64,000 nt of DNA from an uncultured Gemmatimonadales bacterium (lineage in GTDB: Bacteria > Gemmatimonadota > Gemmatimonadetes > Gemmatimonadales > GWC2-71-9): positions 2,304,001-2,368,000 of the forward strand of contig CAWHFW010000005.1 of assembly GCA_963828735.1 (NCBI GenBank). The letters are read 5' to 3'. Both the position numbers and the translations under genes were made by a program. Below, piece by piece: positions 7,442 through 29,616 of the stretch (positions are counted from its first letter, which is position 1; the number at the start of each line of letters is the position of its first letter). The notes below the pieces were generated by a model. That model saw only the letters and a list, made by a program, of their open reading frames with translations, was not told the DNA's origin and ran no database searches.

Positions 7442-7520
7442 GGGAGGCGCGCACCCCGGTTTCGGGTTTTGTTCGGTACCTCAAACCGAATCTACCCGTG
7501 GGGGGGAGGGCGTCAAGTCG
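7295..7520 (-). repeat. Copy 1 (intact) of a ~220-bp direct repeat: dnaE2 promoter plus first ~48 codons
   Basis: Aligns by eye to 8917-9128, e.g. ggctcgagacgccgatgccgaaggagaaRtgggtgtggaggtggagatgg. Confidence 0.9.
7461..7516 (-). promoter_or_regulatory. Sigma70-like promoter TTGACG-N16-TAGATT with a downstream LexA-like operator CCGAACAAAACCCGAA
   Basis: -35 at 7511-7516, -10 at 7489-7494, operator at 7461-7476; the same motif recurs at 13251 and 29561. Confidence 0.75.
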
Positions 7521-7595
7521 GGGGGATAAGAGACAGAGGCGAAGAGGCCTGGGACTGCGAGGCGCTACGAGAGTCACTGCAAGCCCGACGAGCCG

Positions 7596-8849
7596 CTAAT
7601 AGATGTGCAGCTTGCTCAGGAGGGCATACCAGTCATCGACGCATTCGAACAGGTCCTTGTTGTGCTTGATCATCTTGCTGCGCATGTAAACGCGGAGCCA
7701 CTGCTTGTACATGTACAGCTCATAGCGATCGAACTTCTCACCAAGTGACAGGTCAGGATGCGCGATGAGTCCCGCGAGGAACATCGCACACTCGAAGCCC
7801 AGCGAAATCGACTGAAAGTACGGCGACCCGATGGCCGAATCGCCGGCCAGGAACACCGCCGACCCGGTGAACGGGTGGTCGCCGGGTCCCGCGGCGCGCC
7901 ATTGCCGGCTGGTCGCATTGCGAGCCCGGTACAGATCCAGGGGCAGGCGCATGATCTCCAAGTCGCCCAGTATCTCGCCGTGGGTTTCCTGCTTGATCTT
8001 GTCGATGAAGTGGTCCATCGATCGGGCGACACTGGGGAAGTTGCCGCGAAGCCACGGGCCGTCGAACTGTCGCGGCATCGCCTCGTAGTCCTCGGCGGTG
8101 ATCTTGACGATGCCCGTCACGTGGCTGATGCTGCCGTCGTAGAACGTGCGATGGACCGACGGAATGAACTTGTAGGACGGGTTCTCGATGTTCTTGTAGT
8201 ACTTGCAATACTCGTTGCAGTCGTACGGCTGGCCGTACAGAAAGGTGATGACGAGCGCGTATTCGAGCCGGATGTTGTGCGTGCTCGCGCCCTCCACCGC
8301 ATCAAACCCGGGCTCCAGGTGGTCTCGAAACAGTGACTTGCTGCCGGTACAGTCGATCAGGATGTCCCCCGGCTCGAGCATCGCCATGGCGTCCTGTGCC
8401 GTCAGGGTGGCCGCGGTGCGCTGCACCGGAGTCGCCCCGCGGGCATCGATCAGATCGCTGAGGGAGTGCTCGATCGCGTTGAGCGGACAGAACCCCTGGG
8501 TCCACTGGCGAAGAAGTGCCATCAGGTCCGAAGGAATGGACCGTCTGAACACGAGACCCTGCTCGAGCTCCGATGGCTCGAAGACGGCCTCGATATTCTC
8601 TCCATCGATGTAGTCGGTACAGTAACTCTCGACCGAATCCGCCACGAGGTACGAGGCGAGCTGAACCATTCGGGTACGAGAATACTCGCGTCGCTTCTCG
8701 TAGAGGCGCACGGAGAACCCCGCCAGCGGCTGGAGCAAGGTCGTCAGTAGAAGGCCCACGGGTCCTGCGCCGACGACATGCACTCGGCGACTGGATGGCA
8801 CGGTCTCGACGGTTGGAAAGCTGGATTGCGGAGGCACTCGCGTTCTCAC
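7596..8849 (-). CDS. FAD-dependent monooxygenase/oxidoreductase of unknown function
   Basis: VVGAGPVG Rossmann motif, IDCTG (DG motif), FLAGDSA (GD motif); visibly more AT-rich than the flanking genes. Confidence 0.8.
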   Translation of the reverse strand: MRTRVPPQSSFPTVETVPSSRRVHVVGAGPVGLLLTTLLQPLAGFSVRLYEKRREYSRTRMVQLASYLVADSVESYCTDYIDGENIEAVFEPSELEQGLVFRRSIPSDLMALLRQWTQGFCPLNAIEHSLSDLIDARGATPVQRTAATLTAQDAMAMLEPGDILIDCTGSKSLFRDHLEPGFDAVEGASTHNIRLEYALVITFLYGQPYDCNEYCKYYKNIENPSYKFIPSVHRTFYDGSISHVTGIVKITAEDYEAMPRQFDGPWLRGNFPSVARSMDHFIDKIKQETHGEILGDLEIMRLPLDLYRARNATSRQWRAAGPGDHPFTGSAVFLAGDSAIGSPYFQSISLGFECAMFLAGLIAHPDLSLGEKFDRYELYMYKQWLRVYMRSKMIKHNKDLFECVDDWYALLSKLHIY

Positions 8850-8916
8850 TTGAGCCGCTTGAACTCAGCGGACCTCGAATGTTACCAGGTCGTTCCGAGG
8901 GGGGAAGGGCCCTCGC

Positions 8917-9128
8917 CTGGAACTCGATGGGCCGTATACGCCTTCGGTGTTGGTGGATGCGAGCGCCGCGAACCCCAGCTCCGCGGCGGCTGTGGCTCTG
9001 GGCTCGAGACGCCGATGCCGAAGGAGAAATGGGTGTGGAGGTGGAGATGGCCCACGGGCGGCGCTCCAGTTTCGGTTTTTGTACGGTTTCTCACCCCGAA
9101 TCTACCTGTGGGGAAGAGGGTCAAGTCG
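8917..9128 (-). pseudogene. Copy 2 (decayed): 5' fragment of dnaE2 with degenerate promoter and operator
   Basis: Encodes VGHLHLHTHFSFGIGVSSPE and then frameshifts; operator CCGTACAAAAACCGAA; -35/-10 spacer shortened to 14 bp. Confidence 0.85.
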
Positions 9129-9360
9129 CCCCGCCTCGGAGAAGGCGGAAACCATCTTCATGTGCGTTTCCGTCTCCTCTTCGGCTCGCCGTTCTATCGT
9201 TGTGCTTTCGCTGATCGGGGGAACGAGTGGCCAAGGCTCGTCAAGGCCACGGCATCCCTCAACATGGGTGCAGGCCGTGACAAGGGATCGGGCTACCTCC
9301 ACCGATGAGCCGGAGCCCAGCCGTCCTTGCAGCCCCGAATCTCCCACTGGCCTGAAGACC

Positions 9361-10719
9361 ATGAACCCGCCAGTACCGCCGTTGATGCGGCCAGACCCCA
9401 GGATCGTCAAGCTGGTCGCCGCTCTGGATCTCCTCTGCCTCGCCGCGTCGACCTCCATCTCGGCCGTCATCCTGCTCGGCTGGCAGGTACCTGCGGTGGG
9501 CCGGGCGCTGCCGCACGGGTGGTCGTTGATGAAAACCGAGTCGGCGCTCGGCGTGCTGCTGTGCAGCGCAAGCCTGGTGCTGGCCAGGGAGAGTCGCCGC
9601 CGCCCGCTTCTCGAGCTTGCCGGCCGGCTCTGTGCCGCGGTGGTCGTGTTTCTCGCGACCGCCGCCATAGTCGAGCATTCGGGTATGCGCGTCATAGGAT
9701 TGTCGAGCGAGTGGTCGGCGGCGGGGCCGATGTCGCTTCAGACCGCGTCCTCTTTCGTGCTGCTGGGGCTGTCACTGGTCATCGACCGCACACGGTGGCG
9801 CCTGCTCAGCCACGTGGTGCACTTCCTGATCCTTGCGCTCCTAATGCTCATTCTGGTCGTCATCGCGGGGTACATGTTCGGGGCGTCCGATCTGGTCGGT
9901 CAGTCACCTAATATCCGCATGTCACCGCAAACCTTGGTTTGCATGGCGTTGCTGGCTTTCGTCCGAGTCAATCGCGCAGCCTCCCACGGGGCATTTGCCA
10001 TCATGCTAGGCCCAGGCATGGGGAGCCAGGTCGCCCGGATCATGGTGCCGTCATCGGTAGTCCTGAGCTACGTGATCATTCGTGCCGGCGACCGCCTGCT
10101 CGAGACGGGCACACTGACCTTGCCCTACGCTGGCGCTGTGACCGCAACGAGCATGGCGGCGCTTATACTGATCTTCGTCCTGTTGCTGGCCGGGAAGATC
10201 AACGAGCTCGAAGCGGAGCTGCACGGCATGACGCTCATCGACGATCTGACCGGACTCTACAACCGCAAAGGATTCTGGCTACTCGGCGAGCAAGCACTGC
10301 GCGATGCACGACGGGCGGCAGAGGCGCGGAGCGTGCTCTTCCTCGATGCCGACGGCTTAAAGCAGGTCAACGACACACTAGGGCACGATCACGGATCGGA
10401 GCTCCTGGTCGACATCGCCACCTTGCTGCGCGACACCTTCCGGGACAGCGACGTGCTGGGGCGAGTCGGTGGGGACGAATTCGCCGTCATAACACACGGA
10501 CACGATGGCGAGCTGACATCGGTGTTGCGTCGCCTGGACGAAGCGACCGAAGCGCTCAACCGGACGGGCAACAAGCCGTACCAAGTCAACTTCAGCGTGG
10601 GAGCGGTGGCGGCCCATGTGAAGAGCGCCGAATCGCTTGCCATGTTGTTGAACCGTGCGGACGCGGTAATGTACGACAAGAAGCGACAGCGGCGCGCTGC
10701 ACGCCGGGCCCCGTCTTAG
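9361..10719 (+). CDS. Membrane-anchored diguanylate cyclase
   Basis: About 8 hydrophobic segments; DDLTGLYNR, LKQVNDTLGH, RDSD I-site and GGDEF motifs. Confidence 0.9.
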   Translation: MNPPVPPLMRPDPRIVKLVAALDLLCLAASTSISAVILLGWQVPAVGRALPHGWSLMKTESALGVLLCSASLVLARESRRRPLLELAGRLCAAVVVFLATAAIVEHSGMRVIGLSSEWSAAGPMSLQTASSFVLLGLSLVIDRTRWRLLSHVVHFLILALLMLILVVIAGYMFGASDLVGQSPNIRMSPQTLVCMALLAFVRVNRAASHGAFAIMLGPGMGSQVARIMVPSSVVLSYVIIRAGDRLLETGTLTLPYAGAVTATSMAALILIFVLLLAGKINELEAELHGMTLIDDLTGLYNRKGFWLLGEQALRDARRAAEARSVLFLDADGLKQVNDTLGHDHGSELLVDIATLLRDTFRDSDVLGRVGGDEFAVITHGHDGELTSVLRRLDEATEALNRTGNKPYQVNFSVGAVAAHVKSAESLAMLLNRADAVMYDKKRQRRAARRAPS

Positions 10720-11210
10720 GACCCAGCGCGAGGGGGGCCGCGGCCTCATCCTAGATCCCGGATTCCGATCACTTCGAAGGGGAGTCAGCTACAGCGGGTG
10801 CGACAAGGAGGCACCAGTTCCTCTTCGTAGGCGTCACCGGCGGGCCAAACGACCGGTGGGTTTCCGACAGGGTTCGTGCGCAAGGGGCAAGACCGACTGA
10901 TTCGCGACCCCTTTGCCTGCCTGGTTCTCAGGCCTGATGAGCAACGGTCCTTCGGCCAACCTTCGGGGCGCCTTCGTAGTGCAAGCCCGTCGCGGGCCCG
11001 TCGCTTATCCTCTACGTCGGCGCCGGGAGACTGGGCAGAACCCTCGGGCGACCTTTGCGGAATGCAGTCGGTGGGTACCCGCGGCGCGCCGGGCTGCGCC
11101 GGAAGCCGCCGGGGGAAATTCTGGCAAGCCACGAATTCACCGTAAGTTGTGGCGGCGTTTCAGACCGGCCCAACGAAGCGCCACGATCCTTGCCGTAGAG
11201 TGGCCCACCC

Positions 11211-11984
11211 ATGATTGAGCATCTTGTCACCCGGTTCGAGGCCGCCCGCCTCGATCGCCACCAGCGCGACCTGCGCCGGCGGGAAGAGGCCGCAATCGCC
11301 CGCCTGGGAGAGAAGACCCTGGCGGATGGCGGCGGTCGAAGCGGCCGGCTGGCCTCCCTGGCGTCCGAGGCGGCCGCGGCGCGCGGCCGATTGCAGGCCA
11401 TCGCAGCCGGGCCCGGCGCATCGCCCTCGGCCGCCTCTCGTCAGCGGACCGAGGCGCTCGAACAGCGACTCTACCAGATCCACCTGACGGCCGGGCGCCT
11501 GGCGCTCGCCATGCCGCCAACCGGCGCCGAAAGCGAGGTCCTGGCCATACGCGCCGAGATCGCCGAGGCCGCGAGCGAACGGGACCGGCTGCGCGGGGAA
11601 GGGCATCGCCTCATCGAAGACACATGGGCGCAAATCCATTCGTGGGTTGTCCCGCGGTGGCCTGCCCTCAGCGCCATGGTGGTGGGCTGGTTGATCGCTC
11701 ACAGCTACGCGGGATCGCACACCGAAGCGATCCTGGCCACGGTCGGCTTGAGCGTCAGACGGCGGGGTGCGCACCTGGTGAGCGTGCCGGTCGATACTGC
11801 CCTGGTGCACTACGGTCTCCCGCTGGTGGTGGCGGCGCTCTGCGCCTACGTGGCACACCGACTGGTCGGCAGAGTGCGCACCGCGGTCGAAACCGTTCGC
11901 GCCCGATCCAACGATGCTACGCGCGCGGCGGCGGCCGACACCCGTGACCCGCGCACCCGGCGCGTACCCGAGAAGGCGCGTTAG
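11211..11984 (+). CDS. Hypothetical coiled-coil protein with two C-terminal transmembrane segments
   Basis: ATG start, helical Ala/Arg/Glu-rich N-terminus, two hydrophobic stretches; no family recognised. Confidence 0.6.
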   Translation: MIEHLVTRFEAARLDRHQRDLRRREEAAIARLGEKTLADGGGRSGRLASLASEAAAARGRLQAIAAGPGASPSAASRQRTEALEQRLYQIHLTAGRLALAMPPTGAESEVLAIRAEIAEAASERDRLRGEGHRLIEDTWAQIHSWVVPRWPALSAMVVGWLIAHSYAGSHTEAILATVGLSVRRRGAHLVSVPVDTALVHYGLPLVVAALCAYVAHRLVGRVRTAVETVRARSNDATRAAAADTRDPRTRRVPEKAR

Positions 11985-12045
11985 TCGGGATCGAACGAAT
12001 CCCACCCTCAGCGCCTGAAGTGAAGTCCACATGGTTGGAATGAGC

Positions 12046-12074
12046 GCCGCCCGGAAGGCCTCCGCCGGGCGGCC
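12046..12074. terminator. GC-rich hairpin between convergent genes
   Basis: gccgcccgg...ccgggcggc inverted repeat; no U-tract. Confidence 0.35.
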
Positions 12075-12094
12075 GTCTCGATGGGAGGTGCTGG

Positions 12095-12451
12095 CTATCG
12101 GGCGTCGAAAACCTGGCGGATCTCCGATTCGCCCTCCCATCCCTTCCAGTGCTGCCGGTGCAGCTCCATGAAGCGCTCGCTCCATTTGACCGCCTCTTCC
12201 TTCGACTTCACGTCGTAGACCGCATAGCCGCCGATCACCTCCTTCGCCTCGGTGAAGGGGCCGTCCGTCGTGGTCAGCTTGCCGCCGGCGAGTCGCACGC
12301 GGGCGCCCATCGCCGATGGAAAGAGCCCGCCGATCTCGACGAGCACGCCGGCTCGCGTGCCTTCCTCACCGAGCTTGCCGATCGCGTCGATCAACGCCTG
12401 AGGGGGCGGGGTCGGGCTCTCCGCCGACTTCACCATCGCCATGAACCGCAT
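12095..12451 (-). CDS. YciI/DGPF family protein
   Basis: MRFMAMVK start; TDGPFTEAKEVIGGY; C-terminal EIRQV. Confidence 0.92.
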   Translation of the reverse strand: MRFMAMVKSAESPTPPPQALIDAIGKLGEEGTRAGVLVEIGGLFPSAMGARVRLAGGKLTTTDGPFTEAKEVIGGYAVYDVKSKEEAVKWSERFMELHRQHWKGWEGESEIRQVFDAR

Positions 12452-12539
12452 CGTCGTCCTGCCTCTCGTTGGGGTTGCCTCGCGGCATCCGGCCGCTCCG
12501 GTTGCTCGGAGCGAGGGAGTCCTCCGGTCCTCCCCAAGC

Positions 12540-12566
12540 GACGAACGAGCGGTGTCCAGATCGACA
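12540..12566 (-). promoter_or_regulatory. ECF42-type promoter TGTCGA-N17-CGTC upstream of the DGPF gene
   Basis: Minus strand reads TGTCGAtctggacaccgctcgttCGTC; ECF42 sigma factors are known to target DGPF genes through this motif. Confidence 0.6.
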
Positions 12567-12668
12567 CGCCTCCAGATGGGTGGATAAGCCTCGCGAATAA
12601 GCCGAAGACGGTCGGTGGCGGCATGGGGGACGTGCACTGCGCACTTCCCCTCGGATTTGCTCAGGCCA

Positions 12669-13238
12669 TCACTTGGTGGTGGGGGGAACGGTCCGACCGT
12701 TCGTCCGAGCCCATCGAGGCGAGAGCGCGAGCACCTTCGGATAGACCGGGCAGCCCGGCGCATGCGCCCCGGGCAAATATCCGATACTCATGAGAAACTC
12801 GCCGACGATGTCGCCGCCCGTGAAGCGGAAGGTCTGCCTGAAGAGCTTCACCCACTCGTCTTTGGGACGCGGGTCGTGGGCGTCGAGCCAGCCGGCGAAG
12901 GAGCCATAGTCCTCGCGGAGCTGCAGAATCGTCGCTGCGTTCGCGATGGCCGCGTCCACCTTGAGCCGGTTCCGGATGATGCCAGGATCGGCGAGCAGCC
13001 GGCGACGGTCCCGCGCGCGATACGCGGCCACGACCTCGGGATCGAACCCGCCGTAGGCGCGCCGGAATGCCTCGCGCTTCTTCAGGATGGTGAGCCAGGA
13101 CAGGCCGGCCTGATTGATCTCGAGAACGAGCCGCTCGAAGAGCGCCGCATCGTCGGTGAGCGAGAAGCCGTATTCGGTGTCGTGGTAGGGCCCGTGCCAC
13201 TCGTGGCCCGGAGCGATATCGCAGTAGGTAGTACCCAT
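12669..13238 (-). CDS. tag: DNA-3-methyladenine glycosylase I
   Basis: YHDTEYG, LFERLVLEINQAGLSWLTILKK, IIRNRLK motifs; Zn ligands C...H/HAPGC. Confidence 0.93.
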   Translation of the reverse strand: MGTTYCDIAPGHEWHGPYHDTEYGFSLTDDAALFERLVLEINQAGLSWLTILKKREAFRRAYGGFDPEVVAAYRARDRRRLLADPGIIRNRLKVDAAIANAATILQLREDYGSFAGWLDAHDPRPKDEWVKLFRQTFRFTGGDIVGEFLMSIGYLPGAHAPGCPVYPKVLALSPRWARTNGRTVPPTTK

Positions 13239-13250
13239 CGACAGGCCGCC

Positions 13251-13306
13251 TTCGGCATTTGGTCGGAGCCCTGACGGAATATCTGGAGCACCCCGGGCTT
13301 ACTCAA
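13251..13306 (-). promoter_or_regulatory. LexA-like operator CCGACCAAATGCCGAA plus TTGAGT -35 upstream of tag
   Basis: 13/16 match to the box at 29561; same 45-bp operator-to--35 offset. Confidence 0.6.
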
Positions 13307-13916
13307 GCGTCCGCGTCTCGCCGGCGACGGTAGTAGGCCGCAGCATTCGCACGGTTGCCGCAGGTGCGCATGTCGCACCATCGCCGAGTGCCATTCTTGG
13401 TCTGGTCCAGGAAATAGAGGACGCACGCGGGGTGCGCGCAGCGTCGGATCCGCCGCAGGTCGGCCTGACACAGCAGGTCCGCTGCCGCCTCGGCGATCGG
13501 TACCAGGAGGTCTACCGGGCGATCGAGCCGCAGGCCGCGCCGCGCGACGAACCCGTCGTCGCCGACAACCACCTCGGTGACGCCGGCGCCGCGTCGCAGC
13601 ACGCCGTTGATCGCGTCCAGCGTCGAGCGCGGCACCCGGCGGCCCGTCGCTGCGGCGTCGGACATGCGGCGAAGTGCGGTGCGAAGGGTCCGTGTCTCCT
13701 CGAGCAGCGCGTGGCCCGCCCGTTTGCCCCCCACTTCTCGTGTGCCGTCCGCGCCGTCGTCCGATCGATGGCACCGGCCTGCTCGAGCCAGCTCACCAAG
13801 TCGGCCAGGTCCGCCAGGAGGTCGCGGAGCCCGCCGTCCGCGACGACCTCGGTGTTGACGAAGTCGAGAGCGCGCTGCTTGACGATGAAGACGAACGGAG
13901 ATGCGGCGACGGGCAT
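13303..13916 (-). CDS. ABATE/CGNR zinc-finger regulator, frameshifted at a G6 run (13727-13732)
   Basis: N-terminal ALDFVNT in one frame; CAHPAC...RRWCDMRTCGNR in another; one extra G joins them (WGGKRAGHALL); leaderless-type TATACT-N7-ATG. Confidence 0.85.
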
Positions 13917-14033
13917 GGTTGGGAGTATAAGGGTCTAAAGTCGTGTTGACCACTGAGCCACCGGGAACTATCAGCATCAAAATGGCATTTAGGGGATGAC
14001 GCCTCTCTCGTCTCGACGTCCAAGGATGGTTCC

Positions 14034-14180
14034 ATGGCCAGATTGTCCGATCTCATGCCCGACCACACCGGGCTAAACCTTGCCGACCTCGAGCAGTCCA
14101 TTGCCGCCTACGACGAGCTGCTGGAGTTGAAGGTGATTCAGGAATCGATGGCCGGTGCGCGGCCGTGTAGGTCCTTCTGA
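14034..14180 (+). pseudogene. Internally deleted VOC/glyoxalase gene (48 aa)
   Basis: MARLSDLMPDHTGLNLADLEQSIAAYDELLELKVIQESMAGARPCRSF*; first VOC beta-alpha unit only; its TGA overlaps the next ATG. Confidence 0.65.
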
Positions 14181-15028
14181 TGGCGATCTATCACGAGGGG
14201 GAGCTCGAGGTCCAGCGGCGGGCGGGTGTGCTCGCGAACGCGGAGCGGGTGGGGCGTATCGTACGGCGGGAGATCCCCGACGTCGCGCGGGAGTTTGTCG
14301 CCGAGCGACCGTTCGTCATTCTCGGCGCCGCGGATCAGGACAACCGCCTCTGGGCAACGATGATGCGCGGCAAGCCAGGCCTGCTCTCGGTTTCCTCGGA
14401 GGACCGGCTCGTCATCGGCGCGCGTGTGAGCCTCGAGGACCCCCTCGCGCGTGCGCTCGAAGGCGAGGTGGACGTCGGCTTGCTCCTCATCGATCCGGCG
14501 ACTCGCAGGCGCATGCGCGTCAACGGGCGCGCGCGCCCCCTGGAGGGGCGTTGTCTCGAGGTAGCCACCCGCGAGGTCTACTCGAACTGCCCGAAGTACA
14601 TCCAGCCGCGGGATGTGGCGCCATCCACGTGGGAGGGGGCGCCGCCGCGCGTCGAGCGCGGATCCGCCCTGACTGACGCGCAGGCGGCCATGATCGCGAC
14701 GACCGACACGCTGTTTCTCGCGAGCAGGCATCCAGTCGCGGGAGCAGATGTTTCGCACCGCGGCGGGCAGCGTGGATTCGTACGGGTGACTACTCCCAAT
14801 CGTCTCCTGTTTCCCGACTACCAGGGGAACATGATGTTCAACACACTCGGCAACCTGGCGGTCAATCCACGCGCGGGCATCCTGGTCGTGGACTTCGAGA
14901 ATGGCCATACGCTGCAGCTGAGCGGGCGCGCGACCGTCGTGTGGGACGCCACGGTCGCGGCCGCGCTGCCCGGCGCGCACCGAGCCGTCGAGTTCATGAT
15001 CGACAACGTCGTCGGGCGAGGTTCGTAG
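14180..15028 (+). CDS. Pyridoxamine 5'-phosphate oxidase-like FMN-binding protein (two domains)
   Basis: YHEGELEVQ, RRRMRVNG, YSNCPKYIQ, DVSHRGG, PDYQGN motifs. Confidence 0.9.
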   Translation: MAIYHEGELEVQRRAGVLANAERVGRIVRREIPDVAREFVAERPFVILGAADQDNRLWATMMRGKPGLLSVSSEDRLVIGARVSLEDPLARALEGEVDVGLLLIDPATRRRMRVNGRARPLEGRCLEVATREVYSNCPKYIQPRDVAPSTWEGAPPRVERGSALTDAQAAMIATTDTLFLASRHPVAGADVSHRGGQRGFVRVTTPNRLLFPDYQGNMMFNTLGNLAVNPRAGILVVDFENGHTLQLSGRATVVWDATVAAALPGAHRAVEFMIDNVVGRGS

Positions 15029-15075
15029 TGAAGAACCGTCGGATCTCGCTGGCGGTCACCGCGAAGTGGCGGCGC

Positions 15076-18491: not shown

Positions 18492-18540
18492 GGCTGGTTG
18501 GCCATAGACGATGGATAATACCAGGGACGAGTGCCGCGAG

Positions 18541-20622
18541 TCAGACGAGGCCGAGGGCGTTGAGCACGATGTCGATCAGCTTGATGCCCACGAAGGGCGC
18601 GAGCAGGCCACCCACGCCGTAGACCAGGAGATTACGCCGGAGAATCACAGCCGCCGGCGCGGGCCTGTAGGCCACGCCGCGCAGCGCCAGCGGGATGAGC
18701 GCGACGATGATGAGCGCGTTAAACATCACGCTGCTCAGGATGGCCGAATGAGGCGACGCGAGGTGCATGATGTTGAGCACGCGCAGATCCGGGTAGGCCG
18801 CGACGAACATCGCCGGGATGATGGCGAAGTATTTCGCGACGTCGTTGGCGATGGAAAAGGTGGTGAGTGAGCCGCGGGTCATCAACAGCTGTTTGCCGAC
18901 TTCGACGATCTCGAGCAGCTTGGTCGGATTGGAATCGAGATCCACCATGTTCCCGGCCTCGCGGGCGGCTCGGGCGCCCGTGTTCATCGCCACGCCGACG
19001 TCCGCCTGGGCCAGCGCGGGGGCGTCGTTGGTCCCGTCGCCTGTCATCGCGACCAGCCGCCCGGTGTCCTGTTCTGTCCGAATGAGGGCAAGCTTGCCCT
19101 CGGGTGTGGCCTCGGCAAGGAAGTCATCCAGGCCGGCCTCGGCGGCGATCGCGGCGGCAGTCAGCGCGTTGTCGCCGGTGATCATGACCGTGCGGATGCC
19201 GAGGCTCCGGAGTTGCTCGAACCGCTCCCGGATGCCGCCCTTCACCAGGTCCTTGAGGTGAATGGCGCCGTAGACTTTCGCGGTGCCGTCCCTACGCTCG
19301 GCCACGATCAAGGGCGTGCCGCCCTGGCGTGCGATGGCCTCCGCCGCGCTGGCCGTCTCGGCGGGCAGCGACCCGCCCGATGACGCGAGCCAGCGCGACA
19401 CGGCGTCGACGGCGCCCTTTCGAATCTGCACCCCGCCGACGTTGACGCCGCTCATCCTCGTCGCGGCCGTGAAGGGAACGAAGGTGATTGGGGCACCCGC
19501 GCCGGCACCCACGGACGAGGCGCGCAACCCGAACCGCTCCTTGGCCAGGACCACGATGCTCCGGCCCTCCGGGGTCTCGTCGGGGAGCGAGGCGAGCCGA
19601 GCGCGGTCGGCTAGCTCCTCGACCGCCACTCCGGCGGAGGGCAGGAATTCGACGGCCTGACGGTTTCCCAGCGTGATTGTTCCGGTCTTGTCGAGCAGCA
19701 GGGTGTTCACGTCGCCTGCCGCCTCGACGGCGCGACCGCTCATCGCGATGACGTTGCGCTGGATCAGCCGGTCCATCCCCGCGATGCCGATGGCCGAGAG
19801 CAGCCCGCCGATGGTGGTCGGGATCAGGCAGACGAGCAGCGCGATCAGGACCGGCACGCGGAGCTCGACGCTGCTATACGCGGCGAACGGTCGAAGCATG
19901 GTGACGGTCCACAGAAATACGATGGTGAGTCCCGAGAGCAGGGTCGTGAGGGCGACCTCGTTGGGGGTCCTGCGTCGGTTGGCGCCCTCGACCAGGGCGA
20001 TCATCCGGTCGACGAACGTCTCGCCCGGGTTGGCCGTCACCCGCACGACGAGCCAGTCGGAGACCAGGCGGGTGCCGCCGGTGACGGCCGAACGATCAGC
20101 GCCGGCCTCGCGGATCACCGGCGCGGACTCCCCCGTGATTGCGGCCTCGTCCACCGACGCGATGCCCTCGATCACCTCGCCGTCCGCCGGCATCAGGTCG
20201 CCCGACTTCACGATGACGTGGTCGCCTCGCCGCAGCTCGGTCGCGAACACCGACACGAAGTCCAGGTGGTCGGTGGGATCCCGCAGCCGCTTTGCGCGAG
20301 TCTCGAGCCGGGTGCCGCGCAGCGCGTCGGCCTGCGCCTTGCCTCGACCTTCGGCCATCGCCTCCGCGAAATTGGCGAACAAGACGGTGAACCAGAGCCA
20401 GACAGCGAGCTGCACGGTGAAGCCGACACCCGGGATGCCAAGGATCAGGTCCCGAACGCAGGCCAGCGTGGTGAGAACGCTGCCCGTGAGCACCACGAAC
20501 ATGACCGGATTCCGCAGCATGTGCCGCGGGTTCAGCTTGCAGAACGCCTCCCGAACCGCCCGACGAACGATCGGGGGATGGAAGAGGGGGTGCCTCGCGG
20601 GACCCAAGGAGCGCTCCGCCAC
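18541..20622 (-). CDS. kdpB: Second K+-transporting ATPase subunit B paralogue
   Basis: [23 protein letters not shown] and [11 protein letters not shown] all intact. Confidence 0.93.
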
Positions 20623-20633
20623 GCCGGCCGCGG

Positions 20634-21221: not shown

Positions 21222-21223
21222 GG

Positions 21224-23296
21224 TCACACCAGGTGCAGGGAGACGAGGAGGACATCGATGGCTTTGATCCCGATGAAGGGAACAATCACGCCACCGATCC
21301 CGTAGATCACGAAATTCCGCCGGAGGATGCTGGCCGCGCCCGACGGGCGATACCGTACTCCTCGGAGCGCCAGCGGGATCAGCGCGATGATGATGAGCGC
21401 GTTGAACACGACCGCGCTCAGGATCGCCGAGACGGGCGAGTGGAGCCGCATGATGTTGAGGGCGTTGAGTGCCGGATAGGTGGCGGCGAACATCGCCGGG
21501 ATGATGGCGAAGTACTTGGCGACGTCGTTGGCGATCGAGAACGTCGTGAGCGAGCCGCGAGTAATGAGCAGCTGCTTCCCAATCTCCACCAGCTCGATGA
21601 GCTTGGTCGGGTTTGAGTCGAGGTCGATGAGGTTGCCGGCCTCCTTCGCCGCCTGGGTTCCGGTGTTCATGGCCAGGCCGACGTCGGCCTGCGCGAGGGC
21701 CGGGGCGTCGTTGGTGCCGTCGCCGGTCATCGCGACCAGCCGGCCTCCGGCCTGCTCCTGCCGGATCAGCGCCAACTTGTCCTCGGGCCTGGCCTCCGCC
21801 AGGAAGTCGTCCACACCCGCTTCGGCCGCGATCGCCGCGGCGGTGAGCGGGTTGTCGCCGGTGATCATCACGGTGCGGATGCCCATCGCGCGCAGCCGGT
21901 CGAACCGTTCCCTCATCCCGCCTTTGACGATGTCCTTGAGGTGCACGACGCCAAGCACCCGCGTGGCCCCTCCCGCCGTCTCCGCGACGACGAGCGGCGT
22001 GCCGCCGGCCCGGGCGATCTGCTCCACCGCCGGGGTGAGGCGCGCTGGCACGTCCGCCCCCATCTGGCCCACCCAGCCGGCGATCGCGTCGGCCGCGCCC
22101 TTGCGCACCTGAAGGCCGTCCGTGTTCACCCCGCTCATGCGGGTGGCCGCCGAGAAAGGAATGAAGGTGGGCGACGCGTGCGACCCGCCGTCCTCGCTCA
22201 GGGGCCGGCCGCGAAGCCCGTACTTGTCCTTGGCGAGAACAACGATGCTGCGTCCTTCGGGGGTCTCGTCCGGCAGCGAAGCCAGCTGGGCCCGGTCGGC
22301 CAACTCCTCCGCGGAGATTCCGGGCAGCGGCACGAACTCGACTGCCTGGCGGTTGCCCAGGGTGATGGTGCCGGTCTTGTCGAGCAGCAAGGTGTTGACG
22401 TCGCCCGCCGCCTCGACGGCGCGTCCGCTCATCGCGACGATGTTGTGCTGGATGACGCGGTCCATGCCCGCGATGCCGATGGCCGAGAGGAGCCCGCCGA
22501 TGGTGGTCGGGATGAGGCACACCAGCAGCGCGATGAGAATGGACACGGCGACGCCGCCGCCACTGTAGATCGCGAGCGGCTGCAGGGTGGCAATGGCCAG
22601 CAGGAAGACGATCGTGAGTCCGGAGAGGAGGATCGTCAGCGCGATCTCGTTCGGCGTCTTCTGGCGCGAGGCACCTTCGACCAGAGCGATCATGCGGTCG
22701 AGGAACGTCCGGCCGGGCTCCGCGGTGATCTTCACGATGAGCTGGTCGGACAGCACCTTGGTGCCGCCGGTGACGGCCGACCGGTCGCCGCCGGACTCGC
22801 GGATCACCGGGGCTGACTCGCCGGTGACGGCCGACTCGTCCACCGAGGCGACCCCGTCGATGACCTCGCCGTCACCGGGGATGACGTCGCCGGGCCGGCA
22901 CAACACCAGGTCTCCCATCCGCAGGTCGCTCGAGGACACGCTCTCGACCCGCGACGTGTCCCGTGGGTCCCTGAGCCGCTTGGCCACCGTAAGCCGCCGC
23001 GTCTTGCGCAGCTCGTCGGCCTGCGCCTTCCCGCGCCCCTCCGCCATCGCCTCGGCGAAGTTGGCGAACAGGACCGTGAACCAGAGCCAGAGCGCGAGCT
23101 GGAAGAGGAAGCCGAGCTCCGAGCCGCCCCTGGCAACCTCGCGGATCAGCGCGAAGGTCGTGAACACGCTGCCGACGAGCACGACGAACATGACCGGGTT
23201 CCGGACCATGTGCGCCGGCGCGAGCTTCACAAAGGCGTCCTTCGCCGCCCGCCGGACGATGGGTGGATCGAAGAGCGGTCGCTTGGTGACGGCCAT
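21224..23296 (-). CDS. kdpB: K+-transporting ATPase subunit B
   Basis: Canonical position after kdp[23 protein letters not shown] motifs. Confidence 0.96.
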
Positions 23297-23297
23297 G

Positions 23298-25013
23298 CTA
23301 GAAGAGCCTCCCGCTCTGCATCAGCAGGTGCTCGACGATGGGGCCCAGCGACCAGGCCGGGAAGAACGTGAGAGCGCCCACGATCACGATGACGCTGATG
23401 AGGAGGACCACGAAGAGCGGCGTCGTGACCGGAAATGTGCCGGCCGACTCGGGAGCGATGCGCTTCTCGGCGAGGAACCCCGCCGCGGCCAGCATCGGCA
23501 CCTGCATCGCGAAGCGCCCGATCAGCGTCGCGAACCCGAACATGGTGTTGTAGTAGTAGGTGCTTCCGGTGAGGCCGGCGAAGGCGCTGCCGTTGTTGGC
23601 CGGCGTCGAAGTGAACGCGTAGAGGATCTCGGTGAGCCCATGCGGCCCGGCATTGTTGAGGCCTTTGAGGCCCGCGGGGAGGACGACCGAGAGGCCGGTG
23701 GCCACCAGAATCACCAGGGGGAAGACCAGCACGTAGAGCATCACCATTCGCACTTCCCGGCTCTCGACCTTCTTGCCGAGATACTCCGGCGTTCGCCCGA
23801 CCATGAGGCCGGCGATGAACACCGTGAGCAGGACCATCATGAGCATGCCGTAGAGGCCGGCGCCCACGCCCCCGAAGATCAGCTCGCCCATCTGCATGTT
23901 GACCAGCGGCACCATGCCGCCGATGGGGGTAAAGGAGTCATGCATGCTGTTGACGCAGCCGCACGACGCGTCGGTGGTGATGGTGGCGTAGAGGGCCGAG
24001 TTCACGATGCCGAACCGGACCTCCTTGCCCTCCATGTTGCCGCCGGGCTGGGTGGCTGAGGCCTCGACGTCGATGCCCCGGGCCGCGTGAATCGGGTTGC
24101 CCCGCGCCTCCGCCCAGTAGGCGGTGGCCGCGCCGACGAAGAACATGACGTACATCGCCGCCCACAGCGCCCAGCCGTGCGCCTGCTTCTTCACCATGTG
24201 GCCGAAGGTCCAGGTGAGCCCGGCCGAGACGAGGAAGATCTCCAGCAGCTGCAGGAAGTTCGTGAGCGGGGTCGGATTCTCGAATCCATGCGCCGAGTTG
24301 GCATTGAAGAAACCGCCGCCGTTGGTGCCGACCTCCTTGATGGATTCCTGGCTCGCGACCGGGCCCATCGCGATGGTCTGCTTGGCGCCCTCCAGCGTGT
24401 GGACGTCTACATACGGCAGGAAGTTCTGGATGGCGCCCTGCTGCACGTGGACCAGGGCGATGACGAACGAGAGCGGGAGGAAGATGTACAAGGTCCCCCG
24501 CACCAGATCGGCCCAGAAGTTCCCCAGGTGGCCCGCGGAGCGCCGCGCAATGCCCCGGGCCAGGGCCACGGCCACCGCCACGCCGGCCGCGGCCGAGATG
24601 AAGTTGTGGAACGCGAGCTGGCTCATCTGGGAGAAGTACGACATCGTCGACTCGCCCGAATACGACTGCCAGTCCGTGTTGGTGGTGAACGACGCCGCCG
24701 TCTCGAAGGCCTGGCGGTCCACCACCGCCGGGAAGTGCTGGGGGTTGAACGGCAGGACGTGCTGGAGGCGCAGTACGACGTAGGTGAGCAGCATGGACGC
24801 CGCGCTGAAGATCAGCATCGCGGCCGTGTACTTGGTCCAGTGCTGGTCCTCCTCCGGGTCGATGCCGCCTGCACGGTAGAGGAAGCGCTCGATCGGCCGG
24901 AGCCAGCCCATCGATCCGTCGTACACCTTGACCATGTACACACCCATGGGTTTGGTCAGCGCCAGGAGGACGACCGAGTACAAGGCGATCTGCAGCCAGC
25001 CGTTGGCGGTCAT
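23298..25013 (-). CDS. kdpA: K+-transporting ATPase subunit A
   Basis: [38 protein letters not shown] motifs. Confidence 0.96.
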
Positions 25014-25014
25014 C

Positions 25015-25104
25015 TCAGAACCTCTCCGGATGGAGCATCGTGTAGCACAGGTACACCAGCAGCCCCACCGAGATGAGGCCGCCGATCCAGTTCTCCGCGC
25101 TCAT
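25015..25104 (-). CDS. kdpF: KdpF small subunit (29 aa), absent from the ORF track
   Basis: MSAENWIGGLISVGLLVYLCYTMLHPERF*, with the typical PERF ending. Confidence 0.9.
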   Translation of the reverse strand: MSAENWIGGLISVGLLVYLCYTMLHPERF

Positions 25105-25220
25105 GGGGCCCGTTCCTCCCCATGCTCGGTATCGTGGCCCAAGCCCTCGCACGCCCGGATGTAGGCGAGCATGAGGGCGAAGAAGCCGACGCTGCCAATG
25201 ACATAGAGCACATCCATCAT
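25101..25220 (-). CDS. Small single-TM protein leading the kdp operon (39 aa)
   Basis: GGAGG RBS; MMDVLYVIGSVGFFALMLAYIRACEGLGHDTEHGEERAP*; ATGA overlap with kdpF. Confidence 0.75.
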   Translation of the reverse strand: MMDVLYVIGSVGFFALMLAYIRACEGLGHDTEHGEERAP

Positions 25221-25277
25221 CGCTCGTTCCTCCACCGTGGTCGGTGTCGTCCGAAAATGTGCCCGGAAGGTATCGGC

Positions 25278-25335
25278 CGCGGCGTCAGGACGGAGTCTTG
25301 ATCGGCGGGCGCGGCGTCAGGAAATCGTAAAGACG
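25278..25335 (-). promoter_or_regulatory. Putative KdpE binding sites
   Basis: Minus strand CTTTACGatttCCTGACG 11-bp-phased repeat; TCCTGACGCCGCG occurs twice, 32 bp apart. Confidence 0.5.
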
Positions 25336-25419
25336 GGCCGCTGTCCCGGCGCACCCTACCGTTCGGATCGTGGACGGTCCCATCGCGATAGATTGAAGGT
25401 CCCTTCAGCGGCGAGAGTT

Positions 25420-26398
25420 ATGCGGGCGGTCATCTACAATGGCGCCGGCGGTCCCGAGGTGATCAGCATCGGCGACGTTCCGAAGCCCGAGGTGCGCCCC
25501 GGACACATCCGCGTCCGGGTCCACGCCGCGGGGCTCAACCGCGCCGATCTCATTCAGCGGCGAGGCCAGTATTCGCCGCCGCCGGGCGTCGCCGACCGAC
25601 ATTCCGGGGATGGAGTACGCGGGTGAGGTCGAAGCGGTGCGGGACGCGACCCGCTGGAAGGTTGGGGAACGCGTTATGGGCCTCGTGGGTGGCGGCGCGC
25701 AGGCCGAATTCGTCACGGTGCACCAGGACGAGGCGCTGGCGATCCCGAGCGGCCTCTCCTACGTCGAGGCGGCCGCCATTCCGGAGGTGTTCCTCACCGC
25801 CTACGACGCGCTGGTCACGCGCGGGCGGGTGGCGCCGGGCGACCGGGTCCTGATCCACGCCGTGGGCAGCGGCGTGGGGACGGCCGCCGCGCAGATCGCC
25901 AAGCACCTCGGCGCCACGGTGCTGGGCACGTCGCGCAGCGCGGAGAAGCTGGCGCGTGCGACGGTGTACGGGCTCGACCACGGCATCGACACCTCACGCG
26001 CGTCGTTTCGCGAGGTGGTGGGCGACCCGGTGGACGTGGTGCTCGACGTGCTTGGCGGCCCGGCGTTCGCCGACAACCTGGCGGTGCTGGCGCCGCGCGG
26101 CCGACTGGTCTTGCTCGGCTTCCTCGCGGGCAGCCGCTTCACCGGCGACCTAGGCCCGATCCTCCGGAAGCGCCTCGAGGTGATCGGCACGATGATGCGG
26201 ACACGGGGACACGAGGAGCGGGTGCCGCTGGTGCGGGAGTTCACGGAGCGCATGCTACCGCTGTTCGATCGTCGCGTCGACCACGCGGCGCCGCTGCGGC
26301 CGGTGGTCGAGCGCACGTATCCGATGCCCGAGCTCCCCGAGGCGCACCGAGCGCTCGAGAGCAACGAGACGTTCGGCAAGGTGGTCATGAGCTGGTGA
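25420..26398 (+). CDS. NAD(P)H-quinone oxidoreductase (PIG3 type), frameshifted near 25590
   Basis: MRAVIY...GLNRADLIQRRGQY continues as DIPGMEYAGEV in another frame; HAVGSGVGTAA motif. Confidence 0.88.
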
Positions 26399-26606
26399 CC
26401 GGGCCTGCCCGGACGCGTGCGGTCCCGGCGCCAATTCTGCCCGATCGGTTCGATTCGTCCGGACAGTTTGGCCCACCTTCCTCAGTCGCACGCTCCCGAG
26501 ACGCTCATCCGTTGCGCGGTCCGATGGTCCGGGACCTGCACGCGTCTCCAGTTGCCGGCGGGTCATGGGTCAGCGCCGGCGCACCTGCTCGAGGAGGCAC
26601 GCCAGG

Positions 26607-27068
26607 ATGGACCGCATTCGTTCGGCATCGTTTGCCGCCCTGTTCACTATCTCCCTGACGTCGCTCGCGAGCGCGCAACGACAGGAGATCGCCGTCGTCT
26701 CTCCTGACAGCGCATTGGACTCGAACATCGTGGCTCGAGATTCGACCCGTGCCGTGCTGGCTGAGGTCGCGGGTCATGTCCAGCTGGACCAGGCGCGGGT
26801 CGACTCACTTCAAGTTGCGCTCGCGACGGCCCGCGCGGCGCCGCCGCCGGACACGGCCACGGTGCGGCGCGCCACGGCCGCACTCAAGGAGGCGAAAGAC
26901 ACGCTGAAGCGCGACTTGAGCCGCTCGAGGCGGGAGCGCGCGCGGCTGGCGGCTATCGAGAAGAGGCTCGGCAAGGAATCGGACCCGGAGAGGGACCGCT
27001 CGACGATCTCCGCGCTTCCATCCACGGCGCCGTCCCGGGAAACGGGCAGAGTGGCTTCGACGCCGTGA
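26607..27068 (+). CDS. Hypothetical secreted coiled-coil protein
   Basis: GAGGAGG upstream; signal peptide ending ASA-Q. Confidence 0.6.
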   Translation: MDRIRSASFAALFTISLTSLASAQRQEIAVVSPDSALDSNIVARDSTRAVLAEVAGHVQLDQARVDSLQVALATARAAPPPDTATVRRATAALKEAKDTLKRDLSRSRRERARLAAIEKRLGKESDPERDRSTISALPSTAPSRETGRVASTP

Positions 27069-27081
27069 GCCTGGCGCCTGA

Positions 27082-28353
27082 TCAGGTCGTCGCTCTCCGC
27101 GACCCGCCGGCGAGCACGAGGCCGGTGCCGCGCACCACGCCGCGCGCGCCCCAGCGACCTCGAATACGATCGATCGCATCCTGCAAGGCAGGGCCCTGGC
27201 TCTCGGGATGCCGGGGCCCCGGGTCGTCTCGATCGATGCGGAGGAGGCTCTCTTCGGAGAGGCCCCTTTCGCCGTGCTCGTGACCCGAGACCGCACCCAC
27301 CTCCTCCCACAGATCGAGCTGCGCTTCGGCCGCCTCCAACCGGTCCAGCGTCAGCGCCACGGTCCGCACGGCGAGCCGCCGTGCGTTGGCGCTGGTAAAA
27401 GCGCGGCGCGCCGCGTCCCAGAGCTCGGCGTCGAGCGCCGCCGCGTGGAGCGGCACGGCGCGCGCGGCGGCGGTGAGGTCGGCGTACGTGAGCGCGACGC
27501 GGAGCCGCCGCGCCACCAGGCCGCGTCGGCGGAGCCGCCGGCCGAGCCGCTCGCCGAGGAGGCGGAGCAGGGGGTGCAGCACACCGAGGTCGTTGGTGTC
27601 GGTGGCGAGCGCGTGCGCCACGTAAAACTCGGCCTGCTGCTCGGGCGGGAGCACCGGCCGCGGATCGATGCCGCGCGCCTGCGCGCGCAGCGTGCGGCCG
27701 GCGCCGCCGAAGACGGCGCAGAGCGCGCTCTCGGGGATGACCGCGACCTCGCCGATGAGGTCGAGCTGATAGTCGTCGAGCCGGCGGCGCAGGCGGGGAT
27801 GCAGGTCGGGGAGCACGTCGAGCGGATGGGGTGCGAGGAAGCCCGCTTCCCCGCCGCCCGGCACCTCGAGCAGCGGCTCGGGCTTGATGACGGTGGAGGC
27901 CGCCTGGCTCACCAGCTTGTTGGCGGCGACGCCGACCGACACGGCGAGCCCGAGCCGCTCGCGCACCTCGCGCTGCACCCGCGCAGCGACGTCCACCGCC
28001 GGGCCGAAGAGCCGGCCCGTGCCGGTGAGGTCGAGAAAGGCATGGCCGTACCCCCGCGGCTCGATGACCGGCGCGTAGATCCGGAGTACCTCGTGCAGCG
28101 CGCGCGAGGCGCGGGCATAGAGCCGCGGGTTGGGCGGGAGCAGCACGAGATCCGGGCAGCGCTTGAGCGCCTGCCGCACCGGCATGCCCCGCTCGATCCC
28201 GGCGAGCCGAGCCTCCGCGGAGAGCGCGAGCACGGTGGCACGGTCGGCGCCCGGCGGCGCCACGGCCACCGGCCGGCTCCGAAGCGCGGGCGCGACGAGC
28301 CCCTCCACGGTGGTGCAGAAGGCGGGGGGATCGATGAAGAGGACGGAGCGCAC
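27082..28353 (-). CDS. imuB: Y-family polymerase homologue lacking catalytic residues (ImuB-like)
   Basis: FIDPPAF replaces HxDMDAF; GYGHAFLD replaces SIDEAYLD; QLDLW clamp motif; DRIRGRWG tail. Confidence 0.8.
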   Translation of the reverse strand: MRSVLFIDPPAFCTTVEGLVAPALRSRPVAVAPPGADRATVLALSAEARLAGIERGMPVRQALKRCPDLVLLPPNPRLYARASRALHEVLRIYAPVIEPRGYGHAFLDLTGTGRLFGPAVDVAARVQREVRERLGLAVSVGVAANKLVSQAASTVIKPEPLLEVPGGGEAGFLAPHPLDVLPDLHPRLRRRLDDYQLDLIGEVAVIPESALCAVFGGAGRTLRAQARGIDPRPVLPPEQQAEFYVAHALATDTNDLGVLHPLLRLLGERLGRRLRRRGLVARRLRVALTYADLTAAARAVPLHAAALDAELWDAARRAFTSANARRLAVRTVALTLDRLEAAEAQLDLWEEVGAVSGHEHGERGLSEESLLRIDRDDPGPRHPESQGPALQDAIDRIRGRWGARGVVRGTGLVLAGGSRRATT

Positions 28354-28363
28354 TATGAGCGCA

Positions 28364-29389
28364 CTATAGAAGGAGGAGGGGATCCTCCGTGACGTGGCGC
28401 TCACGCCCCTCGAGCTGCCGCCGCCGCCGGCGCCCCTCGTCCAGCGGAAAGCCGTGGTGCCGCTGGAGATCATGCAGCCGTTCCGCCAGCGCCTGCTGGT
28501 AGGCAGGACTCACGCCCTCGCGCCGCGCGTAATGCCGCTCGTACCGCGCGGCGAGCTCGGGAAACTCGTGAGCGAGCACGGGAAGGAAGCGCTGCCGCGC
28601 CGCGGGGCCGAGCCGGAGCGCCGACCCGACCACGTAGCGGGCACCCGCCTCCTTCGCCGCGCCCATGAGCCGTCCGAGCCCAGCACGGTCGTCGGTGATG
28701 CCGGGCAGAATGGGCGCCACCAGGAGACCGGCGTGGACGCCGGCCGACGTGAGCCGGGCGAGCGCGCGGATGCGCGCCTCCGGCACCGGCGACTTGAGCT
28801 CGAGCCGCCGCGCGAGGCGGCGATCGAGCGTGGCGAGCGACACGTTGACGGTGACCTCGTGCCGTTCGGCGAGTTGGCGCAGCACGTCGATGTCGCGCAC
28901 GACCAGCGGCGACTTGGTGATGATCTCGATGGAGAGCCCGCGATATCGATGCAGCGCCTGCAGGATCCCGCGCGTGAGGCGGAAGCGCCGCTCCGCGGGC
29001 TGGTAGGGATCGGTGGCGGTCCCGATGACGAGGGAATGGTTGCCGAAGCGCGTGGGATCGAGCGTGCGCACGAGCACGTCGGTGACGCCGGTCTTCACCA
29101 GGATCCGCCGCTCGAACGCCTCCCACGCGGGCAGCGGCTCGGCGGGGAGACCGCTGCGCTCGACGGCGTAACGGTGCGTATCCCGCGCGTAGCAATAGGT
29201 GCAGCCGAACTCGCAGCCGACGTAGGGATTGATCGACCAGAACCCCATGCGGGTGGCGGCCGGCGTGTTGAGCACCGAACGTACCGGAAGCTCGAGGAAC
29301 CTGGTGCCCCGCGCACGTTCGTCCAGCACCTCCAGCCGTGGCTCCGCCGGCTCGGGCGGCGGCAGGAGGTCGAGCTGACGGCCGGTCAC
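28364..29389 (-). CDS. Radical SAM protein, SplB-like/Rv2578c family
   Basis: SINPYVGCEFGCTYCYAR (CxxxCxxC), GTATDPYQPAE, IITKS, APILPGITD motifs. Confidence 0.9.
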   Translation of the reverse strand: MTGRQLDLLPPPEPAEPRLEVLDERARGTRFLELPVRSVLNTPAATRMGFWSINPYVGCEFGCTYCYARDTHRYAVERSGLPAEPLPAWEAFERRILVKTGVTDVLVRTLDPTRFGNHSLVIGTATDPYQPAERRFRLTRGILQALHRYRGLSIEIITKSPLVVRDIDVLRQLAERHEVTVNVSLATLDRRLARRLELKSPVPEARIRALARLTSAGVHAGLLVAPILPGITDDRAGLGRLMGAAKEAGARYVVGSALRLGPAARQRFLPVLAHEFPELAARYERHYARREGVSPAYQQALAERLHDLQRHHGFPLDEGRRRRRQLEGRERHVTEDPLLLL

Positions 29390-29541
29390 TCGCAGCGTGC
29401 CCAGCCGCAGTGACGGCAGCTGACGCAGCCGGACGCGCGCACGAGCGGGCCCGCGCACTCAGGGCACACACGCACGGCGGCAGGCGGGAGGGTATCGGGT
29501 CCGGTAGCAGCAGGGCGGGGGCGGGGTTGGAGTGTTGGCAT
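29386..29541 (-). CDS. 51-aa zinc-ribbon microprotein
   Basis: GAGGGA RBS then ATG; CPECAGPLVRASGCVSCRHCGWARCE*; GTGA overlap with the radical SAM start. Confidence 0.75.
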   Translation of the reverse strand: MPTLQPRPRPAATGPDTLPPAAVRVCPECAGPLVRASGCVSCRHCGWARCE

Positions 29542-29560
29542 TGAGTGTCCCTCGACGGGC

Positions 29561-29616
29561 TTCGGTTTTTGTTCGGTACGCAATCTATAGATGCGCCTCG
29601 CGCCGAGTCCTGTCAA
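29561..29616 (-). promoter_or_regulatory. LexA-like operator CCGAACAAAAACCGAA with perfect TTGACA -35
   Basis: GTACCGAACAAAA is identical to the dnaE2 box; same 19-bp distance to the start codon and 45-bp offset to -35. Confidence 0.78.

Follow-up and report, generated by a model that had tools for sequence, protein, structure and literature searches.

A direct repeat at DNA-damage genes of the class Gemmatimonadetes, CCGAA-N6-CCGAA, as a probable LexA operator

In a stretch of 64,000 nucleotides from an uncultured Gemmatimonadales bacterium (GenBank assembly GCA_963828735.1, contig CAWHFW010000005.1, positions 2,304,001 to 2,368,000 of the forward strand; hereafter the window), a short repeat stands upstream of three DNA-repair units: a gene for a DnaE2-like polymerase, tag, and an operon made of a Zn-ribbon open reading frame (ORF), a radical SAM gene and a Y-family polymerase gene. 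The locus raises the question of which regulator reads this repeat. The initial annotation, made from the letters of the window, proposed LexA, and this assignment is supported by sites at lexA and recA elsewhere in the genome, by their conservation in relatives and by enrichment at SOS-type genes. From these sequence comparisons, CCGAA-N6-CCGAA is very probably the operator by which LexA keeps DNA-damage genes repressed in the little-studied class Gemmatimonadetes. For lexA, recA and the genes of error-prone polymerases and radical-SAM repair proteins, the site coincides with the predicted promoter or follows it closely. The closest lexA relatives of the source genome are those of named Gemmatimonadales.

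The box is a direct repeat with an 11-bp period, which is read as TTCGG on the other strand and has the core TTCG-N7-TTCG. The four 16-mers originally listed are present at 7461, 9071, 13251 and 29561, all on the minus strand. Exact copies of CCGAA-N6-CCGAA occur three times in the window (7461, 10951 and 29561) versus 0.20 expected, a number reached in 0 of 100 shuffles; the copy at 10951-10966 was absent from the original list. When one mismatch is allowed, 11 matches are found versus 5.65 expected, and at least 11 were obtained in 7 of 100 shuffles. Given that the sites at tag and at 9071 need one mismatch, and that such matches are not in significant excess, neither of them is significant alone. 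Because it sits within a duplicated dnaE2 promoter, the 9071 site is not independent, so that the window offers three independent sites, one of them weak. The half-site GAAC read by the initial annotation did not hold: the conserved half-site is CCGAA/TTCGG, and GAAC-N7-GAAN fits 55 of the 147 sites of relatives. Across the genome, a spacer of 6 gives the most non-coding matches of CCGAA pairs among spacers 0 to 20 (14 of 22). GAAC-N7-GAAC was discarded as a consensus because its spacer of 7 is without excess in the genome (21 of 71 matches non-coding, like neighbouring spacers), and palindromic arrangements of CCGAA gave no peak there. The real pattern was enriched over a reversed one in 30 of 31 genomes, with a tie in G095, in a control that is not matched for word frequency and carries little weight.

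The initial annotation had named the absence of the motif upstream of lexA and recA as a ground for abandoning LexA. The motif is found there, twice at lexA and once at recA, and also in relatives. The genome has one recA and one canonical LexA (C4:194580-195188; TIGR00498, 220 bits against a cut-off of 111), with a winged helix, an S24 domain, and an Ala-Gly cleavage site and Ser/Lys dyad that align to solved LexA. The lexA gene is divergent from trpC, and its promoter reads TTGTCC-[TTCGG-N6-TTCGG]-G-TATTGT-[TTCGG-N6-TTCGG], in which the first box fills the predicted -35/-10 spacer and the second, 25 nt apart from it, follows the -10. The single box of recA comes directly after TTGA. Among the 80 closest lexA loci, two boxes are found within 130 nt in 78, one in locus L043 and none in L015, which lies on a truncated contig. 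At least one box is found in all 59 other class-level lexA loci, and two in 48; these loci represent 9 families, with 29 best hits and 30 chosen for spread from 116, and some of the genomes overlap the set of closest lexA. For recA, the strict box is present in 30 of 31 loci of the same family, the exception being truncated, while in other families of the class 20 of 23 loci have the TTCG-N7-TTCG core and 5 the strict box. Outside the class, lexA of the other classes of the phylum has the core in 10 of 10 loci. When metagenomes were scanned with the double box alone, 21 of the 119 loci retrieved were beside lexA (46-91% identity), 20 of them with the recognition helix SLATVHEH and one frameshifted.

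Two side features of these upstream regions were observed. Upstream of lexA in genome G069 (L130), a TTCGG box is paired with an inverted CCGAA box, versus the tandem pair elsewhere. Upstream of recA in family f1 (L154-L181), a second conserved imperfect palindrome like GTGAC-CAAAATCGGTCAC occurs on both sides of the promoter in many relatives; it is possibly the site of another regulator.

The strongest link of the box to LexA itself is the apparent covariation between one residue of the recognition helix and the fifth base of the half-site. In Gemmatimonadetes, helix 3 of LexA reads HEH and the half-sites end in G (224) versus C (6). At the 10 lexA loci of other classes, which comprise Glassbacteria (one locus so named) and two other families, the helix reads HKH and the lexA promoters read TTCGC/T, with half-sites ending in C (27) or T (3) and never in G. 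The LexA of locus L483 (helix SLATVHKH), which appears to resemble acidobacterial LexA, has TTCGC-N6-TTCGC, and the LexA proteins of loci L452 and L484 (HYH) have TTCGA upstream. The residue that varies aligns with Glu45 of E. coli, giving the pairs Glu-G, Lys-C and Tyr-A, and Glu45 is listed as DNA-binding in PMC13416735. A tree of 31 LexA sequences, in which sampling is thin and Cereibacter sits on a long branch, places Cereibacter with Gemmatimonadota, L483 and the L452/L484 pair in a clade with support of 96/97, from which Bacillus, Collinsella, E. coli and Geobacter are excluded. Given that the tree holds few independent changes, the rule relating residue and base is only a hypothesis. 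In its broad form, one old LexA clade (Gemmatimonadota, Patescibacteria and others) would read TTCG-N7-TTCG and the residue equivalent to Glu45 would set the next base (Glu CCGAA, Lys GCGAA, Tyr TCGAA), a proposal to which we give a little less than an even chance.

The extent of the regulon was explored with a matrix built from 159 distinct lexA and recA sites of other genomes. At 19 bits or more, the genome has 17 matching sites and an order-4 Markov simulation 1; lowering the limit to 15 bits raises these figures to 31 and 18. A lack of enrichment at repair genes, which the initial annotation had named as a ground against LexA, was not observed, since the best matches are mostly at SOS-type genes. 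Nine of the 17 top sites are at such genes or at the dnaE2 remnant of the window: the radical-SAM operon (28.7 bits), a TIGR03916-like radical SAM gene (27.6), dnaE2 (27.2), the remnant (21.0), lexA twice, recA and two uvrA genes. Lower scores were obtained for a DNA polymerase IV gene (17.4 bits) and a SWIM protein (18.1 bits). In relatives, all 29 loci of the radical-SAM operon have a box, a count that includes the own locus and excludes a truncated one.

Two of the 17 top sites belong to uncharacterised units. The first precedes a 90-aa ORF (27.5 bits; C5:2291899-2292171, that is, L225:1000-1272, plus strand), which is in no PHROG family; its Atlas matches are hypothetical clusters, of Gemmatimonadota and in one case of phages. 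Seven homologues of it were found in 100 family genomes, and all seven have a box of 22.9-28.7 bits (8 of 8 with the own gene). It is likely an SOS gene, of uncharacterised function. The second (25.8 bits) precedes a three-gene unit (C5:1672673-1674749, that is, L226:374-2450, plus strand) with a 184-aa ORF (phrog_11717), an ECF-sigma-like gene and an S24 peptidase gene; the 184-aa ORF was not found in 60 relatives with its own sequence as query.

Several observations weigh against this reading of the box and of its regulon. The genomes compared are related and not independent, and the sites of the matrix were picked by the core, so that the core columns are invariant by construction. Of the 17 top sites, six have no recognisable repair gene next to them, and two of these six fall within coding sequence. 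In addition, 97 of the 119 loci retrieved by the double box matched none of 12 queries and mostly have the look of tandem repeats of low complexity. The core was found in 0 of 15 recA loci of the other classes of the phylum. Among the genes of the window, dnaE2 has a box in 9 of 29 loci and tag reaches 15 bits in 2 of 26 (own included but not among the 2), partly because both are often internal to operons, with tag often directly before dnaE2. With uvrA, which the initial annotation had proposed to check, the result is divided: the two genes of this genome are boxed, but only 4 of 30 loci are, all in this genus, which rules out uvrA as a class-wide member. The claim that tag is an intact SOS unit likewise stands in part, given that the site and its 40-nt spacing are present but the site is weak, with one mismatch. 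In a genome of the same genus (L358), a perfect box lies 12 nt before the tag start, at the same place as the window site, indicating that the latter is probably a real site in decay.

The non-repair top sites include ones near a HlyD-family gene, a LysM transglycosylase gene, a membrane protein gene and a small peptide gene. Boxes of 18-21 bits were recorded at the LysM lytic transglycosylase (L232; C5:673458), at the HlyD-family gene (L230; C5:2676330), at the membrane protein gene beside a Flp pilin (L231; C6:117379) and at a SWIM zinc-finger gene (L234; C5:2273398).

In the mechanism that we favour, a LexA dimer would sit on two CCGAA half-sites spaced by 11 bp, a single turn of the helix, and block RNA polymerase. 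At lexA and recA, where TTCGG is on the coding strand, the block would come from inside the -35/-10 spacer; at the three units of the window, where CCGAA is on the coding strand, it would come from about +6 to +21. DNA damage would give rise to RecA on single-stranded DNA, LexA would cleave itself at Ala-Gly, and the promoters would be freed. The steps of repression and self-cleavage are proposed because they are established SOS biology.

The arrangement of the promoters is compatible with more freedom than the initial annotation allowed, which described a TTGAC or TTGAG -35 exactly 45 bp from a fixed operator position. The distance is exact in the three units: TTGACG (7516), TTGAGT (13306) and TTGACA (29616) each precede the box by 40 nt, counted to its first C, and this agrees with the 45 bp measured from 7471, 13261 and 29571. 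As a fixed rule it fails, given that over 14 promoters with a CCGAA-oriented box and TTGAC or TTGAG the distance spreads over 37-42 nt, with 40 nt found four times, three of them in the window, and in 1 of the 11 promoters from other genomes. For the copy at 9071, the distance is 38 nt. The spacing is a real and loosely conserved architecture with the box just behind the predicted transcription start. Among the three units, a consensus -35/-10 pair was called at dnaE2 and not at tag or the Zn-ribbon operon. In lexA and recA, whose promoters fit the consensus pattern, the box is inverted relative to the window units and fills the -35/-10 spacer; TTG stands 4-20 nt ahead of TTCGG boxes, which often include the -10 (TATATT). 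A further TTCGG box, inverted and 24-26 nt upstream, covers the -10 in at least 7 of 29 radical-SAM promoters; this is a minimum, given that the sequence inspected reached only about 20 nt past the best site on its downstream side. The units of the window share their geometry because each keeps only the downstream box of this often-inverted pair, and dnaE2 has one upstream TTCGG left. This TTCGG, which comes after the dnaE2 promoter, resembles a leftover half of the inverted operator that relatives have upstream.

A real damage-response element could also be bound by another regulator, for instance an activator of the WYL type or an S24 repressor like those of phages. For a symmetric LexA dimer, a direct repeat is a structurally odd target; many genomes of the class encode a second, distant S24 protein, and non-canonical SOS repressors are known in Bacteroidetes (PMC8565304). 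Nonetheless, boxes straddle the promoter of lexA itself in 59 of 59 loci, the fifth base covaries with a residue of the LexA recognition helix, and the sites overlap promoters as repressor sites do. There is also only one PF01726 LexA in the genome, the second hit being HrcA-like by sequence. We regard a regulator other than LexA as improbable.

Still less probable is that the motif is a part of the promoter, as a sigma-factor or start-site element. The common 40-nt distance in the three units and the -10 often contained in the TTCGG-type box would fit such an element, but the motif is found in either orientation, its distance from TTG varies (4-20 nt for TTCGG boxes versus 37-42 nt for CCGAA boxes), and its strongest sites are concentrated at damage genes. 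That the likeness of the window sites reflects local duplication plus chance, with functionless sites at tag and 9071, holds for the duplicated fragment at 9071 and draws on the frequency of one-mismatch matches and the 11.0 bits of the tag site, but as an account of the whole motif it is ruled out by the unlinked lexA, recA and uvrA sites and by the class-wide conservation, it leaves the perfect box at the same position in L358 unexplained, and we consider it highly improbable. Loss of function of the tag site alone is a separate matter, which we hold to be quite possible though not the likelier outcome.

LexA acting on CCGAA-N6-CCGAA would belong to a kind of system that is not new, given that direct-repeat LexA boxes are known, and the Gemmatimonadota box is a lineage variant of this kind, with a core common to at least Patescibacteria-type lexA. 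With the alphaproteobacterial GTTC-N7-GTTC (PMC3323433, PMC8565304), it shares the direct repeat, the 11-bp period, the register (TTC is common to both) and the position at lexA. The likeness drawn by the initial annotation is therefore sound for repeat and period, but not for GTTC half-sites or an alpha-type helix: the conserved bases are TTCGG, GTTC-N7-GTTC occurs in only 6 of 147 sites, the GTTC test positions of the matrix hold 0.1-0.2 bit, the lexA promoter of Cereibacter with its GTTC-N7-GTTC sites scores -2.8 bits, and the recognition helix reads SKSGIHRL in Cereibacter (one sequence) versus SLATVHEHL in the cognate LexA. A direct-repeat LexA box outside Proteobacteria is that of Acidobacterium capsulatum (Mazon et al. 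2006, PMID 16549674). The acidobacterial consensus is reportedly GTTC-N7-GTTC; searches of plasmid and phage LexA returned no Acidobacteria.

Closer in sequence are the Patescibacteria-type lexA genes of L452 and L484, which both have TTCG-N7-TTCG upstream and differ in reading TTCGA with Tyr versus TTCGG with Glu in Gemmatimonadetes. The pattern that retrieved L452 includes the core, while L484 was retrieved by its protein; most of the named relatives of L452 (about 65-72% identity) are Patescibacteria, and the tree places L484 as its sister. A Patescibacteria LexA motif of 2017 (Sanchez-Osuna, Barbe, Erill; PMID 28618189) is cited among direct-repeat motifs in PMC7739468, and the presence of the core before Patescibacteria-type lexA means that it may already be published. 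The same source reports the Balneolaeota direct repeat TTACACATATTTTWTACATA, whose regulon comprises lexA, recA, genes for translesion polymerases and one for a radical SAM protein. This repeat was reached by the same comparative logic and has a similar regulon, but TTACACATATTTTWTACATA is unrelated in sequence and is backed by electrophoretic mobility shift assays, whereas the Gemmatimonadota box is a prediction from sequence. The validated LexA proteins of Table S2 in the supplement of PMC8565304 include Acidobacterium, Microgenomates and Parcubacteria, and Gemmatimonadota are unmentioned in the portion consulted. A published Gemmatimonadota LexA box was not found by title, abstract start or motif spelling, a search in which unread key papers and unsearched databases may bear on novelty; the box is apparently not in print for this phylum.

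Named matches in a homologue search from the LexA of G103 were all Gemmatimonadota. In IMG/VR, few full-length LexA were found, with the core upstream in 2 of the 4 looked at, and a scan for promoter plus core gave 25 loci with only 1 beside lexA, the others being probably chance-fitting phage promoters or chunks of host DNA. The L452 gene lies on an IMG/VR contig (773-2224, plus strand) and encodes a Patescibacteria-type LexA fused to an adenine methyltransferase, with TTCGA-N6-TTCGA upstream.

A probable SOS operator for a common soil phylum would allow its damage regulon to be read directly in genome sequences, and new members such as the 90-aa protein are suggested by it. The covarying residue and base provide a cheap test of the LexA recognition rule. 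If that rule is true and one old clade of LexA shares it, the three natural variants would allow single swaps to test how a head-to-tail repeat is read by a symmetric dimer, and the box would also expose uncharacterised SOS genes such as that of the 90-aa protein.

The coordinates of the sites and of the genes behind them are collected in Table 1.

Table 1. Repeat sites, promoter elements and associated genes in the window.
Feature	Position	Strand	Evidence
Accessory homologue of DNA polymerase III alpha, DnaE2-like, 1035 aa	4334..7441	-	NF004225 (error-prone model) score 555.7, below cut-off 939
Putative operator CCGAA-N6-CCGAA before DnaE2-like gene	7461..7476	-	27.2 bits
Predicted sigma-70 promoter of dnaE2, TTGACG-16-TAGATT	7489..7516	-	promoter scan
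Duplicated dnaE2 promoter and frameshifted 5' fragment with small deletions, pseudogene remnant	8918..9128	-	sequence comparison
Decayed operator copy within dnaE2 remnant	9071..9086	-	21.0 bits
Additional perfect CCGAA-N6-CCGAA, intergenic, without adjoining repair gene	10951..10966	-	16.9 bits
tag, 3-methyladenine DNA glycosylase I family	12669..13238	-	PF03352
Weak putative operator before tag, one half-site mismatched	13251..13266	-	11.0 bits
TTGAGT, putative tag -35	13301..13306	-	no call in promoter scan
Y-family (DinB/ImuB-type) polymerase homologue	27082..28353	-	IMS and IMS_C domains
Radical SAM protein related to Rv2578c/PA0069	28364..29389	-	scores below cut-offs
51-aa Zn-ribbon ORF	29386..29541	-	weak match to B12-dependent ribonucleotide reductase C-terminus
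Putative operator before Zn-ribbon/radical SAM/Y-family polymerase operon	29561..29576	-	28.7 bits, best site of the genome
TTGACA, putative -35 of Zn-ribbon operon	29611..29616	-	no consensus -10 at 16-18 nt

The label DnaE2 was chosen because the occurrence of the protein is patchy, 36 of 100 family genomes giving a match at E<=1e-60. The three units of the window look like pieces of a cassette of radical SAM, tag and dnaE2 that is often contiguous in relatives. The dnaE2 remnant, 1.6 kb upstream of the intact gene and with a FAD-dependent gene in between, is a trace of the rearrangement that separated tag from dnaE2. In the third unit, the stop of the Zn-ribbon ORF overlaps the GTG of the radical SAM gene, whose start at 29389 is a predicted one, the open frame extending to 29458.

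The perfect repeat at 10951-10966 may be a chance occurrence. Between a GGDEF gene and an uncharacterised ORF, three CCGAA-like words follow one another there in 11-bp register (10951-10977, minus strand). The window also holds a kdp operon, in which two genes for KdpB-like P-type ATPases (18541-20520 and 21224-23296, minus strand) flank kdpC.

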